Below, one piece after another: positions 51,697 to 59,794 of a DNA stretch of 64,000 nt. Position 1 is the stretch's first letter; each line of letters starts with the position of its first letter. The DNA lies in NCBI GenBank assembly GCA_934654475.1, contig CAKUFZ010000008.1, positions 2,361 to 66,360 of the forward strand, read 5' to 3'. The DNA comes from an uncultured Coriobacteriales bacterium. Lineage in GTDB: Bacteria > Actinomycetota > Coriobacteriia > Coriobacteriales > UMGS124. Position numbers and translations under genes: made by a program. Below the pieces are notes generated by a model. That model worked only from the letters and a program-made list of their open reading frames with translations. It did not search any database and had not been told where the DNA came from.

Positions 51697-54570
51697 ATGG
51701 CAGCAAACACCAACGTCACACGCCGCAGCTTTGTCAAGGCAGCAGCGCTTGCCGGCGCGGCGGTGGCCATCGGCACCCAGATGAGCGGTTCTCTCGTCGA
51801 GGCGCCTGCGGCATACGCTGACGAGGCTGACGACGTCAAGAAGGTCTACACCTCTTGTCACGGCTGCATCCAGATGTGCCCGGCTATCGCCACCATCGAG
51901 AACGGCGTGGTCACCAAGCTCGAGGGCGACGACCGCGCCCCCGTGTCTAAGGGCTCTCTGTGCATCAAGGGCCTCAACCAGCTGCACACCATGTACAGCC
52001 CGCGCCGTATCCTGCACCCGCTGAAGCGCGTCGGCGAGCGTGGCACGACCGACTTCGAGGTCATCTCCTGGGACGAGGCTATCGAGCTTGCGGCCACCCA
52101 GATCAAGGACGCCATTGACCAGTACGGCAACTACTCCTTCTTCTCCTCCGTTGGCGGCGGCGGCGCTTACTCGTTCATGGAGGCCATGACGCTTCCTATG
52201 GCGTTCGGCTCCCCCACCGTCTTTGAGCCTGGTTGCGCCCAGTGCTACCTGCCCCGTTGGTCCCTGTCGAAGCTCTTCTACGGTGGCGACGACCAGTCCA
52301 TCGCAGACAACGCCGTCCAGGAGATCTTCCGCGACGAGGAGAACAACAAGACCGAGCTCGTCGTGATCTGGGGCGCCCAGCCCTCCGTCTCCGAGACCGC
52401 TGAGTCCGGCCGCGGCATGGCCGAGCTGCGCGCTCGCGGCGTCAAGACCATCGTCGTCGACCCGAACTTCTCGCCCGACGCCGCCAAGGCCGACGTGTGG
52501 CTCCCCGTTCGCCCCGAGACCGACACGGGCGTGCTGCTGTCCTGGTACCGCTACATCTTCGAGAACAAGCTCTACGACGAAGAGTTCACCAAGTACTGGA
52601 CGAACCTGCCCTTCCTGATCGACCCCGACACCAAGCTTCCCGTCAAGGCTCAGGAGCTTTTCCCCGACTTCCAGCAGACCACGCCCGAGAACACCCCGGC
52701 GTACGTGTGCTACGACCTCAAGACCGGCGCCGTTGCTCCCTTCGAGTACAGCGCTCCTGCCGACTCCGCCGTTGATCCCGAGATCTTCTGGGAGGGCGAG
52801 CACGAGGGCAAGACGTACAAGACCGCCGGCCAGATCTACAAGGATCAGGCTGAGCCCTGGACCTTCGAGCACACCGAGGAAGTCACCTGGGTTCCCGCCG
52901 ACCTCAACGAGAAGGCCGTCAAGATGTACGCCGAGAACTGGGGCGGCATTGCCAACGGCGTCGCAGCCGACATGAGCGAGTCCGCCTCCCAGGTGCCCCT
53001 GGGCTGCATGGGCTTGGACGCCATCATGGGCCGCATCAACAAGCCCGGCGTCACCATGACGCAGAAGGGCGGCGGCTACTTCGCCACCATGACCGACACC
53101 GGTGAGACCGTCAACACGCGCCCGGTCACCTACAACAACGGCTTTAGCGGCATGTTCTCCGACATGTACGGCGTGGGTGCCGTCATCGGCATGTCCGACG
53201 CTGAGAACGAGGAGCGCATCAAGGCTCTGGGCGAGGCTATGCCTGACTCCCAGAAGACCCTCAACAAGCTGCTCCAGGATCGTCTGGGCATGAAGTACCA
53301 CAAGGGCCTCTACGCTTGGTGCCACTCCCACATCCCCACGGTGCGCGAGGCCATCGCCACTGGCGAGCCCTTCAAGCCGCGCGTGTGGTTCGACATGTCG
53401 GGCAACAAGCTCGCGATGCTCGGTAACGCCAAGAGCTGGTACGACGTCTTCCCCGAGGTGGACTTCATCATCGGCCAGTACCCGATGCTGACCTCCTTCC
53501 ACATCGAGGCCGCCGACCTGGTCTTCCCGCTGCGCGAGTGGCTCGAGGAGCCTATGGTCAACATGACCCAGCTCGACACCCAGTGGCTGCAGAACGAGTG
53601 CACCCACATCGGCGAGACCGTCTCCCACTCCATTCCTGCTGCACAGGTCATCAAGAAGTGCCAGGAGCTGTGGGGCGGCTCCATCCCCGGCGGCCTCGAG
53701 CTCGCTCCCGGCGTCTCCGCCTACCTGGGCAACGCCACCGAGCAGGAGGTCAAGGACTCCGTCGCACAGACCCTGGGCGCTGCCGATTGGGATACCCTCC
53801 AGTCCGACATCGACGCCTACGTGCCTTGCGTGACGCCCGACTACTTCAACTACCTGCAGCATGAGCAGCTCTGCGACGACGGCCTGCCTTCGGGCTTCGC
53901 CACCGAGTCGCGCAAGGTCGAGGTCTACTGCCAGATTCTTCTGCGCATGGCCCGCAACGGCTACCCGTTCTGCTACCCCGAGCCGCAGGAGGCCTGCGAC
54001 GACTACAGCCCGATCTGCGAGTTCATCGAACCCGCCGAGTCGCCTATCAACGACGAGGCCAACGGTGAGGGCGGCCAGTACCCGTTCATCCTGACCTCCG
54101 GCCGCGTGCCGTACTTCCATCACGGCACCATGCGCCACGCCGCGTTCTCCCGCGAGCTCTATCCTGCGCCTCACGTGCGCATCAACCCGCGCTCCGCTGC
54201 CGACCTCGACATCGCCGACGGCGACTGGCTCAAGATCACGAGCCGCCGCGGTGAGATCGCCGGCATCGCCGAGCTCACCGAGGGCGTGGCCCCCGGCGTT
54301 GTCTGGATGGAGCGCTACTGGAACCCCGAGTGCTTCGACGAGTCCATCCCCGCAGAGCAGCGCTCCGCTGGCTGGCGCGAGATGAACGTCAACGTGCTGA
54401 CCAAGAACGACGCCCCGTTCAACGAGGTGTACGGCTCTTACACCAACCGCGGCTTCACCGTGCGCGTGGAGAAGGGCGACAAGCCTGCCAACGTTTGGAT
54501 TGAGCCCGAGGAGTTCCAGCCCTTCATGCCCACGCTCCAGAGCGAGCCCAAGACTGAGGATGTGTTCTAA
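51697..54570 (+). CDS. Tat-exported molybdopterin (bis-MGD) oxidoreductase catalytic subunit, DMSO reductase superfamily
   Basis: Signal MAANTNVTRRSFVKAAALAGAAVAIG. N-terminal 4Fe-4S motif CHGCIQMCPA...C. 957 aa. Confidence 0.85.
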   Translation: MAANTNVTRRSFVKAAALAGAAVAIGTQMSGSLVEAPAAYADEADDVKKVYTSCHGCIQMCPAIATIENGVVTKLEGDDRAPVSKGSLCIKGLNQLHTMYSPRRILHPLKRVGERGTTDFEVISWDEAIELAATQIKDAIDQYGNYSFFSSVGGGGAYSFMEAMTLPMAFGSPTVFEPGCAQCYLPRWSLSKLFYGGDDQSIADNAVQEIFRDEENNKTELVVIWGAQPSVSETAESGRGMAELRARGVKTIVVDPNFSPDAAKADVWLPVRPETDTGVLLSWYRYIFENKLYDEEFTKYWTNLPFLIDPDTKLPVKAQELFPDFQQTTPENTPAYVCYDLKTGAVAPFEYSAPADSAVDPEIFWEGEHEGKTYKTAGQIYKDQAEPWTFEHTEEVTWVPADLNEKAVKMYAENWGGIANGVAADMSESASQVPLGCMGLDAIMGRINKPGVTMTQKGGGYFATMTDTGETVNTRPVTYNNGFSGMFSDMYGVGAVIGMSDAENEERIKALGEAMPDSQKTLNKLLQDRLGMKYHKGLYAWCHSHIPTVREAIATGEPFKPRVWFDMSGNKLAMLGNAKSWYDVFPEVDFIIGQYPMLTSFHIEAADLVFPLREWLEEPMVNMTQLDTQWLQNECTHIGETVSHSIPAAQVIKKCQELWGGSIPGGLELAPGVSAYLGNATEQEVKDSVAQTLGAADWDTLQSDIDAYVPCVTPDYFNYLQHEQLCDDGLPSGFATESRKVEVYCQILLRMARNGYPFCYPEPQEACDDYSPICEFIEPAESPINDEANGEGGQYPFILTSGRVPYFHHGTMRHAAFSRELYPAPHVRINPRSAADLDIADGDWLKITSRRGEIAGIAELTEGVAPGVVWMERYWNPECFDESIPAEQRSAGWREMNVNVLTKNDAPFNEVYGSYTNRGFTVRVEKGDKPANVWIEPEEFQPFMPTLQSEPKTEDVF

Positions 54571-55172
54571 TGAGAAACTGCCTTGTTATCGATCTGGACC
54601 GCTGCTCCGGCTGCGACTCCTGCATCGCCGCTTGCAAGCATGAGAACGGCATCGGCCTGGGCGTGTACCGCAACACCGTGGACCGCATGGGCCCCATCGG
54701 CGAGTGGCCTCGCCCGCAGCAGTACTGGCTGCCTCGCCAGTGCCAGCAGTGCGACAACGCCCCCTGCCTCGAGGTGTGCCCCACCGGCGCCACCTATCGC
54801 GATGACGAGTACGGCCTGATCGTCATCAACCAGGAGCAGTGCATCGGCTGCCAGCAGTGCATGACTGCCTGCCCCTTCGACGCCCGCTGGTTCGACGCCG
54901 CCAACTCCGTCGTTGAGAAGTGCGACGGCTGCATCGACAGGCTCAAGAAGGGCGAGAAGCCTGCATGCGTGCACAACTGCTGCTGCGGCGCCCGTCTCTT
55001 CGGCGACCTCGACGACCCCGAGTCCGACGTCTCGAAGGCCCTGGCCGCAGCCGACCCCGCGTCGCTGCACCAGTTCAACGACGAGCTCGGCGTCTCGCCC
55101 CGCACCGTCTACATCCTGTCGGAGAAGGTTTGCCCCTGGCAGGACGAGAAGACCGCCTATCGCGCTCGCTAA
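54570..55172 (+). CDS. 4Fe-4S ferredoxin-type electron-transfer subunit (DmsB/PsrB-like)
   Basis: Four Cys clusters: CSGCDSCIAAC, CQQCDNAPC, CIGCQQCMTAC and CDGC...C. The start overlaps the upstream stop (TAATG). Confidence 0.9.
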   Translation: MRNCLVIDLDRCSGCDSCIAACKHENGIGLGVYRNTVDRMGPIGEWPRPQQYWLPRQCQQCDNAPCLEVCPTGATYRDDEYGLIVINQEQCIGCQQCMTACPFDARWFDAANSVVEKCDGCIDRLKKGEKPACVHNCCCGARLFGDLDDPESDVSKALAAADPASLHQFNDELGVSPRTVYILSEKVCPWQDEKTAYRAR

Positions 55173-55173
55173 A

Positions 55174-55465
55174 GCGTTGCGGAACCTGGCCTGCTGCGTT
55201 CTCGGGAGGCTCACGTACATCTAGTACGCATCGCCTCCCGACGCCTTGCAGGCCAGAACCCGCGTTTTGGGATGTTGCGGAACCTCGTCCGCCGCGTTCT
55301 CCACGGGACTCGTCGCAAAGGACGCTCCGTGCACAGGAGCTCACGTACATCTAGTACGCATCGCACCTGTGCGCCTTGCGGACGAGAACCCGCGTTTGGT
55401 TCACTGCGGAACCTGGAATGACGCAATGGGACGGATGTAATGCGTCATTCCCTTTGAGCGGGTTG
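55174..55465 (+). repeat. Three tandem extended stem-loop units (intra-operon), each headed by TGCGGAACC
   Basis: Unit 1 spans 55174-55270, unit 2 spans 55271-55399 and unit 3 spans 55400-55465. Units 1 and 2 share a 26-nt core, GCTCACGTACATCTAGTACGCATCGC. The flanking stems differ in sequence but stay complementary. Confidence 0.85.
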
Positions 55466-55609
55466 GGTTGAATGATTGATTGATGGGGGCGGGGTTGCCT
55501 GTGTGGCGCCTCGCCCCCATGACACAAAGGGACGGGTGCAGTGCGCTGTTCTCGGACCTTGCAAGATGGAGCTGCCGCTTGTGCGGCGTTGTCACGGAGA
55601 GGAACCACA

Positions 55610-56416
55610 ATGAGCGAGAACACGATGGCCGAGACGCTAGATACCCAGGCCGAGGCCACCTCCGCCGACGCCGCCGCACAGGCTGAGCAGGCTGCGACTG
55701 CCGTTCCCGAGGAGGTTGCCGCTGCCCTTGAGGGCCGCGCCGCCTTCTACGAGACGCTTGCAGGCCTTTTCTGGATGCCGCTTACCGCCGAGCAGGTAGA
55801 GGCCATGGCCAACCAGGACTTCTCCGCCTATGCCGAGCTCAACGAGGACTTCGCCGACGGCGTGAACGACATCACGCGCTACCTGCGCAAGCGCAACACC
55901 GGCACGCGCGACGAGATGGCCGTGGACTTCACGGGCACCTTCACGGGCATCAAGACCTACGAGGGCAAGACCGCCGTGCCGTACAAGTCGGTCTTCACGA
56001 GCGAAGACGGCCTTATGTACCAGGAGGGTTTCCGCGAGGTGTACCACGCCTTCAAGGCTGAGGCCATCAAGAAGCGCGCCGGGCTCGACTACCCCGACGA
56101 CCACATCTCGTTCCTCTGCCAGTTCATGGCCATCATGAGCCGCCGCACGCTCGAGGCCCTGCAGGCCGGCGACTACGACAAAGCCGCCCACGACGTGAAG
56201 GCCTCCGCCGACTTCCTCGACAACAACATCCTCTCCTGGTACGACCAGCTCATGGAGCGTTCGCTGTTGCTCATCAAGACCCGCTTCTACAAGGGTGTCA
56301 TGAAGCTTGCACGTGGCTTCTTCACGCTCGACCGCGAGACGCTGGCCGACCTGGCCGATGAAGTTGCCGAGCTTGCCGAGGCGGCCAAGAAGGCCGAAGG
56401 GACCCCTGCCGAGTAA
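55610..56416 (+). CDS. TorD/DmsD-family redox enzyme maturation chaperone
   Basis: RAAFYETLAGLFWMPLT and PDDHISFLCQFMAIM are typical TorD-like segments. GGAGAGGAA SD upstream. Confidence 0.75.
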   Translation: MSENTMAETLDTQAEATSADAAAQAEQAATAVPEEVAAALEGRAAFYETLAGLFWMPLTAEQVEAMANQDFSAYAELNEDFADGVNDITRYLRKRNTGTRDEMAVDFTGTFTGIKTYEGKTAVPYKSVFTSEDGLMYQEGFREVYHAFKAEAIKKRAGLDYPDDHISFLCQFMAIMSRRTLEALQAGDYDKAAHDVKASADFLDNNILSWYDQLMERSLLLIKTRFYKGVMKLARGFFTLDRETLADLADEVAELAEAAKKAEGTPAE

Positions 56417-56471
56417 CGCAAAGCTTGCCTGTCCTTTCAAGGCATCCAAAAATATAGTTGAGCTGCCACTT

Positions 56472-56499
56472 TTGCCCTCTCCTCTTTTTTGCGTACAAT
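56472..56499 (+). promoter_or_regulatory. Candidate promoter for the second LuxR gene (-35 TTGCCC, 16-nt spacer, -10 TACAAT)
   Basis: TACAAT at 56494-56499 and TTGCCC at 56472-56477. Confidence 0.35.
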
Positions 56500-56532
56500 C
56501 ATGTGCGTGCATTCAAGGGGAGAGGGTTTTGT

Positions 56533-58113
56533 ATGGGGCAGACGAGCGCTTCTGAGGGGAAGCGAGGGTTAACCGAAGAGCTGGCGACGCGCTGGCCGTC
56601 GTTGCCGTTCATGGCGTTTGGCGTGTGGACCGCCTGGTCGTCGCTTACCTATTCCGGGTCGCTGTGGCTTTCTGACAACGAGGTCAACGGGTTCTATCTG
56701 TCGTTGCTGTTCGTCATCTCCACCATGGCGTGCGCTGCCGTGTTCCTTGGGGCGCCGTTCTTTGCCCGCCGCCATGCCGATAAGGGCGACGTCTCGAATC
56801 GTGCTGTCATGGGACTCGGTCTCACGGCCGCTCTGGGTGCCTTCCTCATCATCCTCGCTGGCCCGTACTGGCTGGGCGTTTCCCGCCAAGCAACCTCTGT
56901 GTTTGTAGTCGGAGCCCTTATGACGGGTGTTGGCACGGCCGGCATCGGTCTGCGCTGTGCGACGCTCTATGGCGGGCTGCCGCCGCGCAGGGCGCTCATC
57001 GTGGCGGCATTGTCGCAGCTTGTGGCTTCGTTTATCTATTTTGTTGTGCTGGAGACCCCTGCATGGGCTCCCATTGCCCATGGTCCCTCGCTTGCCCATA
57101 TCCTGGCGTTCACGTTGCTGCCAGTGATTGCCGCCTGGCTTTCGTGCATCAAGCCGTCGCGCGAGTCGCTCTTTGAGGAGGGGGTTCGCCAGTACCCGGC
57201 AAACAGCGGCGCGCTGCCTTCGGCGTTTTGGCGTTTTACGGCCTTTGCGTTTGCGCTTGCCCTCATCACCACGTTCATCCGTTCCTCCATGGTGACGGTG
57301 AGTGCGCTTGCCAACACGGTCGAGGGCAACAACGTGCTGCAGCTCCTGCGTATCGCGATGGTGCTCGTCGTGATCGCCTGGACGCTGCGCTCCGACGCCC
57401 AGGGGTTCGACCTGGGGCGCGTTTGCTCGCTTGCCACGGTGCTTGCCGCCGTGGTCACTGCTTGCTCGGCGGCTCTGGGCGGAACCACGAGTGCGCTCAG
57501 TGTGATCGTGTACTTTGCCAGCAGCATCTTCGAGTTCTTCATGTGGTGCCTGCTTGCCTTCATCGTGTACCAGAAGCACATCTCGCCGCTTGCCGTGTTC
57601 GGCTTCGGCCGCGGCCTCTTCATGCTCGGTTGCGCCCTGGGTTGGGCGCTTGGTATCGTCGCGATGCCGATCATCGAGGCGGCCTCGGCGCAGGTGGTTG
57701 TGAGCATCGTGCTTGCCGGTGCCATCATCATCTTGTGGCTTGCCCTGTTCTCGGGCAAGGACTACGAGCGCCTCTTCTCCACGGTGGGCGAGGACGAGCT
57801 GTCGCTGGAGGACCTCTTTGAAATCGATCAGCGCCCTGACGAAGGCACCGAGGCGGGCCAGCCCAAGTCGGAGCGCAAAGGCAAGTTCGGCCAGGCAGTG
57901 GAGGCAGTCGCGGGCCGCAACGCCCTCTCTGCCCGCGAGGCTGACGTGCTGCGCTACCTTGCCATGGGCTATGGCTCGGACCGCATCGCCCAAACCATGG
58001 GCGTCAAGGTGAACACCGTGCGCACCCACACCCACAACGTCTACGTCAAGCTCGACGTCCACTCCCGCGAGGAACTCATGCGCCTGGTAGACGACGAAGT
58101 GGCGGGGATGTAG
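56533..58113 (+). CDS. Membrane-embedded LuxR-family transcriptional regulator (second paralog)
   Basis: Multi-TM N-domain. The C-terminus reads LSAREADVLRYLAMGYGSDRIAQTMGVKVNTVRTHTHNVYVKLDVHSREELMRLV. Confidence 0.8.
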   Translation: MGQTSASEGKRGLTEELATRWPSLPFMAFGVWTAWSSLTYSGSLWLSDNEVNGFYLSLLFVISTMACAAVFLGAPFFARRHADKGDVSNRAVMGLGLTAALGAFLIILAGPYWLGVSRQATSVFVVGALMTGVGTAGIGLRCATLYGGLPPRRALIVAALSQLVASFIYFVVLETPAWAPIAHGPSLAHILAFTLLPVIAAWLSCIKPSRESLFEEGVRQYPANSGALPSAFWRFTAFAFALALITTFIRSSMVTVSALANTVEGNNVLQLLRIAMVLVVIAWTLRSDAQGFDLGRVCSLATVLAAVVTACSAALGGTTSALSVIVYFASSIFEFFMWCLLAFIVYQKHISPLAVFGFGRGLFMLGCALGWALGIVAMPIIEAASAQVVVSIVLAGAIIILWLALFSGKDYERLFSTVGEDELSLEDLFEIDQRPDEGTEAGQPKSERKGKFGQAVEAVAGRNALSAREADVLRYLAMGYGSDRIAQTMGVKVNTVRTHTHNVYVKLDVHSREELMRLVDDEVAGM

Positions 58114-58317: not shown

Positions 58318-58411
58318 TCAGCGGTGAACTCCGGATGAGAATCCTCCCTTGTGCTATAGTTTACTCAAAAAAGTTGACTCAAAAATATTGAGTAACATGC
58401 AAGGAGGAAAA

Positions 58412-59794
58412 ATGGGCTTTGTTGGCAGGAAGGACGAGCAAAAGAGGCTCCTCCGTGTATTTCGAGACGATGCCCAGAATGCCACGCTCGTTTATGGCCG
58501 TCGCCGCGTTGGCAAGAGTGAGCTGTTGTTGCACTGCCTTCGGCAAATTGACGTCCGGACAATCTATTACGAGTGCCGACAAACCTCTGAGGCTCTGAAT
58601 GTAAAGGGCCTCGCTGATGTCGTGGCGGAGTCGTTCGATATTCCACGCCCCGCGTTTGATGGCATTGAGGAAGCGCTAGGGTTCATATTCGAGAGGGCGA
58701 CGCGCGAGAAGATAGTGCTGGTTATAGACGAATATCCGTACCTGCGAGATGCAGTCAAAGGGATGGATTCCATCCTGCAGGTGCTTATCGACATGTATCG
58801 AAATCGCTCGCACATCTCACTGGTTGTGTGTGGCTCCTACGTCGAGGTCATGAGGTCTCTTTTGGAAAGGGAGAACCCCCTGTATGGCCGCATAGACCTC
58901 AAAATCAATCTCAAGCCGATGGACTACCTCGATTCCTCCGAGTTTTACCCGGATTTCTCTTGCGAGGACAAGGTGCGTCTCTACAGCGTGTTTGGCGGCA
59001 TCCCTTATTACAATCGTTTGATAGACCAAGATGCCACCGTACGCGAGAATCTCATTGAGTTGCTCGTGCGCCCCGACGCACGTCTTGAAGATGAAGTCTC
59101 CGCGTTCCTCTTGTCCGAGATATCCAAGATCGCCAATGCCAACGAGGTATTTTGCGCCCTGGCGGATGGGAGTTCGCGCTACAAAGACATACTCGATCAG
59201 TCGCACCTCTCCAGTCCTTCGATGCTTGCCAATGTGTTGGACAAGCTGGTCAAGATGCAGCTCGTGCAGAAGCGCGCCCCCATCAATGACATGCAGAACA
59301 AGAAGAAGTCGTCCTATGTCATCTCAGACGGCCTTTCCCTGTTTTACTATCGGTATGTGTTCCGCTATGCCTCGCAACGCAATGTGCTCGACTCTGATGT
59401 CTTTTTCGACCGTTTCGTTGCCAGCGATTTCGAGAATCGCTATGTGCCCCACGCTTTTGAGGAGGTTTGTCGACAGTATCTCGTGCGCCAGAACCGTATC
59501 GGACGCATCGAGCCGCCGTTCAATTTCATTGGCAGGTATTGGTATGACGACCCGGCGCATAAAACCAACGGTGAGTTCGATGTTGTGACGGAAGACCCAC
59601 AGGGCTATGTCTTCTATGAGGCGAAGTTCCGGAGCACTCCCGTTACGCAGACGATGATTGACGAAGAAATCTCCCAGGTGGAGGCGACCGGTCTCAATTG
59701 TCACCGTTACGGGTTCTTTTCTCGCTCGGGATTTGATGGGGTCGCAGCAAGCGATGAAATTGAGCTTATCAGTCTTGAGGACATGTACGTCTAG
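58412..59794 (+). CDS. AAA+ ATPase (Arch_ATPase-like) with a C-terminal DUF234/PD-(D/E)xK-like domain
   Basis: AAGGAGG SD upstream. Walker A GRRRVGKSELL and Walker B LVIDEYPYL. The C-terminus GEFDVV...YVFYEAKF is nuclease-fold-like. Confidence 0.75.
   Translation: MGFVGRKDEQKRLLRVFRDDAQNATLVYGRRRVGKSELLLHCLRQIDVRTIYYECRQTSEALNVKGLADVVAESFDIPRPAFDGIEEALGFIFERATREKIVLVIDEYPYLRDAVKGMDSILQVLIDMYRNRSHISLVVCGSYVEVMRSLLERENPLYGRIDLKINLKPMDYLDSSEFYPDFSCEDKVRLYSVFGGIPYYNRLIDQDATVRENLIELLVRPDARLEDEVSAFLLSEISKIANANEVFCALADGSSRYKDILDQSHLSSPSMLANVLDKLVKMQLVQKRAPINDMQNKKKSSYVISDGLSLFYYRYVFRYASQRNVLDSDVFFDRFVASDFENRYVPHAFEEVCRQYLVRQNRIGRIEPPFNFIGRYWYDDPAHKTNGEFDVVTEDPQGYVFYEAKFRSTPVTQTMIDEEISQVEATGLNCHRYGFFSRSGFDGVAASDEIELISLEDMYV

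Follow-up and report, generated by a model that had tools for sequence, protein, structure and literature searches.

In a molybdoenzyme operon of an uncultured Coriobacteriales bacterium, the FeS subunit gene is separated from the chaperone gene by a 437-nt gap. This gap most probably (we put this at about 0.7) contains a short tandem array, now in decay, of a hairpin repeat that is non-coding, dispersed and of a mobile, MITE- or REP-like type, and that did not evolve for this operon. The units belong to a repeat family, their copy number varies between strains, and their stems covary by Watson-Crick pairing as palindromes do. By sequence, the family is also related to elements of other phyla that have TA flanks and terminal inverted repeats; among these, the main Streptomyces form has its ends in common with an IS630-family insertion sequence. 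What could have been taken for a regulatory RNA of the molybdoenzyme operon is thus strain-variable repeat DNA, and expression of the A/B subunits relative to the chaperone may therefore track unit number between strains.

Layout of the array

The gap extends from the TAA stop codon of the 4Fe-4S subunit gene (55170-55172) to the ATG of the chaperone gene at 55610, and unit 1 starts 6 nt after the stop codon. Its features and those of its flanks are as follows.

54570-55172, + strand: 4Fe-4S subunit gene of a molybdopterin oxidoreductase (ORF list; Pfam Fer4_11, 1.3e-26)
55179-55269, + strand: unit 1, the basic 88-nt hairpin module with its T-run (covariance model R1; inverted repeats I2 and I6)
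55179-55182/55260-55263: foot helix of unit 1
55186-55194/55248-55256: outer helix of unit 1
55196-55201 and 55242-55249: conserved loop motifs of unit 1, GCGTTC and CGCCTTGC respectively
55203-55210/55233-55240: inner helix of unit 1
55214-55228: apical CGTAC-ATCTA-GTACG of unit 1
55277-55399, + strand: unit 2, the same module with other outer and inner stems (R1; inverted repeats I3 and I7)
55405-55416, + strand: 3'-truncated unit, made of the 12-nt header stump TGCGGAACCTGG alone (direct repeat D4; no R1 match)
55415-55451, + strand: local 11-bp hairpin GGAATGACGCA/TGCGTCATTCC, then CTTTGAG; not a unit (I5)
55466-55609, + strand: leader of the chaperone gene, kept in all strains (haplotype comparison; I1)
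55610-56416, + strand: NarJ/TorD-type chaperone gene, 3' of the array (Pfam Nitrate_red_del, 1.2e-22)

The header TGCGGAACC occurs at 55178, 55276 and 55405, and these are its only three copies in the 64-kb window (the whole stretch of DNA analysed); shuffled sequences held 0.76 copies on average, and three matches were reached in 2 of 100. The 26-nt core is found twice without any mismatch (55209-55234 and 55339-55364), a repetition for which the chance expectation is none, even when 3 mismatches are allowed. The gap region folded far more stably than its shuffles did, with z = -6.5 on the plus strand and -7.7 on the minus strand. The two units carry different arms: the outer ones read GCGGAACCTGGCCTGC/GCAGGCCAGAACCCGC in unit 1 (I2) versus GCGGAACCTCGTCCGC/GCGGACGAGAACCCGC in unit 2 (I3), and the inner ones TCGGGAGGC/GCCTCCCGA (I6) versus GCACAGGAGC/GCACCTGTGC (I7). 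A sequence-only reading of this region had described the gap, the headers, the core and these helices, all of which are present at the positions it gave. It had also counted three units, and here the count has to be amended: units 1 and 2 are true copies, whereas the supposed third is the header stump followed by an unrelated local hairpin, whose arms lie at 55415-55425 and 55441-55451.

The covariance model R1 matched unit 1 at 55179-55266 (114.7 bits, E 9e-27) and unit 2 at 55277-55396 (55.9 bits), and these were its only matches in the window; a search of the gap with filters off, for further decayed units, gave nothing convincing. Unit 2 contains a side hairpin (55302-55331) that the sequence-only reading did not mention, inserted 3' of the GCGTTCTC motif; the same side arm recurs in units of three other loci (L005, L070 and L117). 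The local 11-bp hairpin is variably intact between strains, two of which (L009 and L012) keep its right arm only.

Other repeats were observed in the same gap. A GC-rich inverted repeat, GGGGGCGGGG..CCTCGCCCCC, with 19-nt arms that are 79% complementary, lies at 55476-55527, 3' of TTGATTGATTGA and 5' of the chaperone gene, and is conserved across all strain haplotypes. A 27-nt direct repeat, ATGACRCAAWGGGACGGRTGYARTGCG, has one copy within the local hairpin (55418-55444) and another 3' of the GC-rich repeat (55519-55545), with 81% identity; in strain L016 the first copy bears the second copy's variant, a sign that the two may have exchanged sequence. The segment 55543-55565, GCGCTGTTCTCGGACCTTGCAAG, resembles a collapsed unit in which a GCGTTC-like motif is joined straight to CCTTGC. 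The covariance model had no match there, and the likeness hints that the entire gap is perhaps made of old unit debris. On the 3' side of the chaperone gene, the operon is followed by a gene for a 551-aa LuxR-type protein with a GerE domain (56458-58113) and by an ATPase_2/DUF234 gene (58349-59794). The latter is replaced by a TOBE-domain gene in strain L011, so that the 3' flank of the operon is strain-variable too.

Structure and covariation of the unit

The unit is composed of four helices, namely a foot (GCGG/CCGC), an outer helix, an inner helix and the apical CGTAC/GTACG, between which stand invariant unpaired motifs: GAACC in both arms, GCGTTC in the 5' arm, CGCCTTGC in the 3' arm, and the apical loop. 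Units are modular, and the gain or loss of a side arm and of one or two apical extensions accounts for sizes from 88 to 158 nt; chimeric units with mismatched outer arms are also present. The units of the window are palindromic over their whole length, but the two tips of a Coriobacteriales unit (GTGGGAT.. versus ..GTTT) form poor inverted repeats.

Among the 21 Coriobacteriales units from which R1 was built, 97.4% of the cells in the stems are paired and both sides have changed in 15 of the 26 pairs. This covariation score was reached by none of 500 shuffles, and the signal was lost when partners were shifted by one column. In 15 copies from other phyla, 86% of the cells are paired and both sides have changed in 21 of the 26 pairs; this set was gathered by exact pattern, which inflates the apparent invariance of its core and apex. 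Two of the 15, which fall outside the search pattern, are second, inverted cores of Lachnospiraceae elements, and both keep the apex.

The sequence-only reading had argued from structure-preserving divergence to selection on the fold. This argument is less strong than it seems: the pairs are Watson-Crick on both strands, G-U accounting for only 2 of 546 cells in the Coriobacteriales units. Complementarity that is valid on both strands in this way is the signature of palindromic DNA, rather than that of an RNA evolving via wobble intermediates. Palindromic DNA repeats yield Watson-Crick covariation without selection at the RNA level, and a DNA palindrome accounts for the pattern observed better than does a fold selected in RNA.

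Variation between strains of the same species

Unit content differs between strains. Sixteen metagenome contigs of the same species, picked because they encode exactly the same chaperone or FeS protein, were compared at this locus. With an identical 268-aa chaperone, the gap measures 170, 176, 285, 297, 309, 319, 437 or 446 nt, and the differences correspond to whole units, of which there are 0, 1 or 2, of three stem types. The third stem set, seen in some of the contigs, has outer arms TGATGCGC/GCGCATCA and inner arms GCGAAACC/GGTTCCGC. Optional inserted arms are also found among the strain alleles, and about 140 nt located 5' of the chaperone gene are conserved in every strain. Since both the number and the type of units differ among strains of one species, the units are dispensable and variable. 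The shortest alleles keep fragments resembling unit starts (AGTGATGCG..) and are, judging from these remnants, probably deletion products rather than pristine empty sites; the locus thus offers no clean empty site, and both insertion and deletion are compatible with the alleles seen.

Dispersal in Coriobacteriales

A scan over one genome per species, with a pattern made of the apex and a single loop motif (GTACATYYAGTACGC, then a gap of 8-20, then CGCCTTGC), matched more than 118 stretches. Metagenome-assembled genomes (MAGs) of gut Coriobacteriales and Coriobacteriaceae carry tandem arrays of the same 88-nt module behind many unrelated genes; among the matches listed, such arrays stand at about 9 other, unrelated loci. 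At least 4 arrays were found in a single genome, HRGM_Genome_3264, whose identity to the window is 93% over 4 kb. The Coriobacteriales evidence comes mostly from MAG contigs. In this respect, three loci (L078, L116 and L128) from a MAG labelled Acutalibacteraceae bear arrays of Coriobacteriales type; L116 is orthologous to L110, from a Coriobacteriaceae MAG, and is 80% identical to the first 2.8 kb of the window. From these similarities, the label probably reflects a binning error, the three loci being truly from Coriobacteriales.

These arrays share a strict layout. All are direct, and 16 of 17, which represent about nine independent loci, begin 1-9 nt 3' of the stop codon of a co-directional ORF. 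At convergent gene pairs, each gene has its own array in its own direction, the units meet head-on, and the spacers (234-556 nt) are made of units alone. Junctions read (G)TTT(T)-TA-GTGGG.., with TA in 23 of 32 and a T-run of at least 3 in 29 of 32; the two internal junctions in the window are without TA. At its left end the unit reads TA-GTGGGAT-GCGGAACC, similar to the IS630-type ends seen in the relatives described below; the right tip shows no such likeness. All Coriobacteriales arrays examined close with a 3'-truncated unit of 12 to 36 nt, and the stump at 55405 is one of these. Arrays persist at orthologous loci as their unit types turn over, as seen in the window and L048, in L110 and L116, and in L046, L066 and L087.

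Relatives in other phyla and the link to IS630

Many Streptomyces species have recognisable relatives, several to a genome, and others were found in Lachnospiraceae and in a Smithella, an Elusimicrobiota and a gammaproteobacterial MAG. By BLAST, the Streptomyces form was found at 163 places on 78 Streptomycetaceae plasmids, nearly all of them unannotated. Full Streptomyces copies are hairpins of about 168 nt with terminal repeats CTAGTGCTG..CAGCACTAG, edged by CTAGTGCTGYGACCGGAAAGG and its inverse. In 27 of 68 copies, a co-directional upstream gene has as its stop codon the TAG of the left CTAG, and in 24 of the 68 a convergent gene uses the right CTAG. The two orientations being nearly equal, the Streptomyces element thus targets CTAG/TA with free orientation; relative to GC skew, its orientation is weakly biased (p 0.03-0.06). 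Mismatches between the arms of these elements comprise 422 A.C versus 131 G.T, a difference which rests on about a dozen fixed positions.

Of the terminal 29 nt of the Streptomyces element, 27 are shared with the end of an insertion sequence of 1.24 kb that has TA flanks (L138, 3001-4238; Streptomyces virginiae plasmid NZ_CP107873, 128900-130137). Its frameshifted ORFs scored 115 bits on the NCBIfam model NF033545 (IS630 family transposase, cutoff 100) and include HTH domains; the insertion sequence itself is devoid of the central hairpin module. It is missing from the gene table of the plasmid and adjoins transposase genes of the IS5 and IS110 families. Terminal inverted repeats are clear in the relatives from Streptomyces, Embleya, Lachnospiraceae and Smithella. 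Although the terminal repeats differ in the other Streptomyces subfamilies and in the Lachnospiraceae elements, these too are TA-flanked and carry the same module. Only the Streptomyces relatives are established as IS630-type MITEs.

Several further observations concern these relatives. In Lachnospiraceae (L018, L025, L090 and L098, including Lientehia hominis), the TA-flanked elements are about 330 nt long, with long terminal repeats (CCCTCAGTGGACAAGGGGA..) and two core hairpins in inverted orientation, a REPIN-like layout. Streptomyces loci such as L019, L024, L041 and L051 show GC-rich mini-hairpins, about 35 nt in length (one reads CTCCCCCACTGCCCGAAGGGCGTGGGAGGTGCCCCC), in either arm of otherwise identical elements; they resemble the side arm of unit 2 in the window and amount to small hairpins inserted as a second, nested layer. 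In the Smithella MAG, a copy of the family (L043, 917-959) lies between tRNA genes of a tRNA gene array.

Searches in databases and in the literature

The family appears to be undescribed, in terms of Rfam models, of literature matches to its sequences, and of annotation, which nearly all plasmid copies lack. Rfam 15, searched to a limit of E = 10, gave, over the region, a single chance-level miRNA match (E = 4) and none at the element, and no Rfam family was found at the element in 8 relatives either. The core 13-mer and the Streptomyces terminal repeat were found in no paper by full-text search, and a keyword search for a Streptomyces MITE of this type returned nothing relevant. Viral contigs scanned with the pattern and phage genomes searched by BLAST gave no match, and the units of the window had no match on plasmids. 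Clustering of the ORFs in the 8-kb flanks of the 118 loci listed revealed no recurrent transposase, the recurring ORFs being repeat read-throughs and ABC transporters only. A tblastn search of the window and all loci with the Streptomyces IS630 transposase returned only L138 itself and a fragment in L052. Neither the window nor the 8-kb flanks thus contained an autonomous partner of the Coriobacteriales units, of IS630 type or other.

Other known structures were considered and dropped. A hammerhead-like CUGAUG/GAAAC is confined to one stem type, a sarcin-ricin-like UAGUACG stands in the wrong pairing context, and the element is far too short to carry group II intron ends. Integron attC sites have an R''/L''..L'/R' organisation with GTTRRRY, one per gene cassette, next to intI; the units have no GTTRRRY core and abut directly, with no cassettes between them. 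A CRISPR array was rejected as well, the parts between junctions being conserved hairpins from a small set of types and not unique spacers.

Origin and possible effects of the array

The sequence-only reading had offered three candidate functions, and the dispersal described above sorts them. A REP/MITE-like family is supported, with core and header in many other loci and genomes and with stems backed by covariation across the family, in the 21 Coriobacteriales units as in the 15 cross-phylum copies. An RNA stabiliser or processing element specific to the operon finds no support as the cause of units that come and go beside an identical chaperone and also stand behind unrelated genes, and this same dispersal leaves the idea of a protein-binding module for the molybdoenzyme operon unsupported.

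Mechanistically, the family may spread, or may once have spread, through a transposase acting in trans at TA sites, which in GC-rich genomes would mostly be the TA of TAG or TAA stop codons. Recombination and deletion between units would then remodel the arrays, and palindrome dynamics (template switching or arm-to-arm correction), not RNA selection, would keep the arms complementary. A co-transcribed unit would form a long hairpin ending in a U-run a few nt past the stop codon, and this structure would be expected to cause partial termination or to shield the A/B mRNA upstream of it, in the manner of REPs. Judged from the sequence, a terminator or 3'-end-protecting effect of the units on the operon is likely, and an incidental REP-like effect on the transcript is plausible. 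The orientation of the arrays calls for something more: a DDE cut-and-paste transposase should insert either way, as in Streptomyces, so that co-orientation in Coriobacteriales needs selection or another mechanism, and points to selection of a terminator or stabiliser or to an orientation-specific single-strand mechanism.

The former possibility overlaps with the main reading: the repeat would be the origin of the units, and the effect of hairpin and U-run their selected function, so that they would be mobile or domesticated terminators or 3'-end stabilisers. We hold this as a tentative but substantial alternative. It is favoured by the co-orientation of 16 of the 17 arrays with the upstream gene, by convergent genes that each have an array of their own across spacers consisting purely of units, by the T-run that follows the foot helix in 29 of 32 units, and by arrays kept at orthologous loci across species despite the turnover of unit types. 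However, several arrays, this one among them, are flanked by co-directional genes that seem to form an operon, a setting in which strong termination would do harm; the helix adjoining the T-run is just 4 bp long and is followed by a 3x3 internal loop, a simple consensus terminator scan made no call at the units, and strains with 0, 1 and 2 units coexist. The single-strand mechanism, which we consider unlikely, would involve a hairpin transposon of the HUH/Y1 type (IS200/IS605- or RAYT-like) inserting in a fixed orientation immediately 3' of a short target, for instance TAG or TAA; the TTTAG end of a unit would serve as the next target and so build direct arrays behind stop codons. Such a scheme suits the strictly direct arrays co-oriented with the stop codon of the sense strand, the lack of a convincing target duplication in Coriobacteriales, the conserved non-palindromic loop motifs within the hairpin, and the two inverted cores of the Lachnospiraceae copies, which recall REPINs. 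It agrees poorly with the absence of a Y1 transposase or RAYT gene within the 8-kb flanks of the 118 loci listed and of a conserved 5' GTAG, with the terminal inverted repeats, TA flanks and IS630 partner of the relatives, and with an orientation relative to GC skew that is just weakly biased in Streptomyces (p about 0.03-0.06).

Two readings would tie the array to the molybdoenzyme operon itself. A dedicated cis-regulatory RNA, riboswitch-like or acting as a processing site, could set the ratio of subunit to chaperone, and the position between the two genes, the strong fold and the strong covariation are what such an RNA would show. The Moco riboswitch family has an Rfam model, and neither it nor any other Rfam family was found at the element; strains with the same chaperone have no units or different ones, the same units stand behind unrelated genes, and pairing is Watson-Crick on both strands with G-U nearly absent, the minus strand folding at least equally well. 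This reading is largely refuted by the dispersal, and we regard it as highly improbable. An array of operator sites is, in our estimate, even less probable: the CGTAC-N5-GTACG palindrome, bound by a DNA-binding regulator such as the adjacent LuxR-type protein, would be the functional part. The apical 15-mer is indeed a perfect dyad, and a LuxR-family gene lies 1 kb downstream, but the dyad is also found in copies beside unrelated genes and in five other phyla, and its place is at the end of a long hairpin rather than in a promoter.

A dispersed hairpin repeat remains our preferred explanation. A further reading, which we consider possible but improbable, is that the central module is itself a portable functional device. 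This device would comprise the CGTTG/C loop, the C-GTAC-N4-5-GTAC-GC apex and the CGCCTTGC loop, set among stems that covary freely; it would travel as payload, in at least five phyla, within elements that have TA flanks and whose ends are unrelated, and its domestication in gut Coriobacteriales would have given the orientation-locked arrays less than 10 nt from stop codons. Such a device could act as a transferable terminator, stabilise RNA as a hairpin, or give a universal host factor a place to dock.

Three aspects take the family beyond a routine MITE. The central hairpin is conserved better than the transposon ends, the Coriobacteriales arrays adjoin stop codons and are co-oriented with genes, and the Streptomyces branch is tied to IS630-type ends. 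From a practical standpoint, such arrays can break assemblies, and they may mislead RNA-motif discovery, because palindromic repeats mimic covariation.

Comparison with known systems

The units resemble intrinsic (Rho-independent) terminators in having a GC-rich paired foot followed by 3-5 T and in being oriented with the upstream gene. They differ from them in that the hairpin is much longer, interrupted, endowed with conserved loops, present in multiple near-identical copies, and found inside operons. The general description of MITEs, which are short (less than about 500 bp), non-coding and dispersed, applies to units of 88-158 nt found in more than 118 stretches and to their relatives at 163 plasmid places. 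With the MITEs of the IS630/Tc1-mariner group, the Streptomyces branch shares TA flanks, a CTAG target, terminal repeats starting (C/T)AGTG and an end in common with an IS630-family insertion sequence. By contrast, the central module does not derive from the L138 insertion sequence and is common to elements with unrelated terminal repeats, and the units of the window depart from such MITEs by their poor tips, direct arrays and orientation bias.

REP, BIME and REPIN sequences of Proteobacteria are likewise extragenic imperfect palindromes that often occur in tandem clusters, right after stop codons and within operons. REPs act as 3' stabilisers of mRNA or as attenuators, and near stop codons they lower the expression of the upstream gene; they are 20-40 nt long, have GTAG on their 5' side, change orientation from copy to copy within BIMEs and are associated with RAYT transposases. 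These defining features (size, 5' GTAG, alternating orientation and, within the 8-kb flanks, RAYT) were not found for the units described here, which measure at least 88 nt and carry the header GCGGAACC, GTAGAACC being present only as a covarying variant.

Correia elements (CREE/NEMIS) of Neisseria come with a duplication of TA. Like the units, they are non-coding and multi-copy, at roughly 100-160 nt, and both families combine terminal inverted repeats, clear here in the relatives of the units, around a conserved core with hairpins in transcripts and an effect on neighbouring genes, the last two being predicted in the present case. For Correia elements, an inverted repeat with a conserved core and binding by IHF and RNase III have been described (PMC2649163), and the Correia repeat begins TATAGTGGATTAA (PMC5039591). 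This start may be compared with the ends found here, namely TA-GTGGGAT in Coriobacteriales, CAGTGGACAAGG in Lachnospiraceae and TAGTGCTG in Streptomyces. Correia elements nevertheless have other hosts and no sequence homology with the family past a few terminal bases; they are single insertions, whereas the Coriobacteriales units form direct tandem arrays locked to stop codons, and they bind IHF, for which no site was identified in the units. By analogy, the family would work most like Correia elements, and also like REP/BIME sequences, as a member of neither group.
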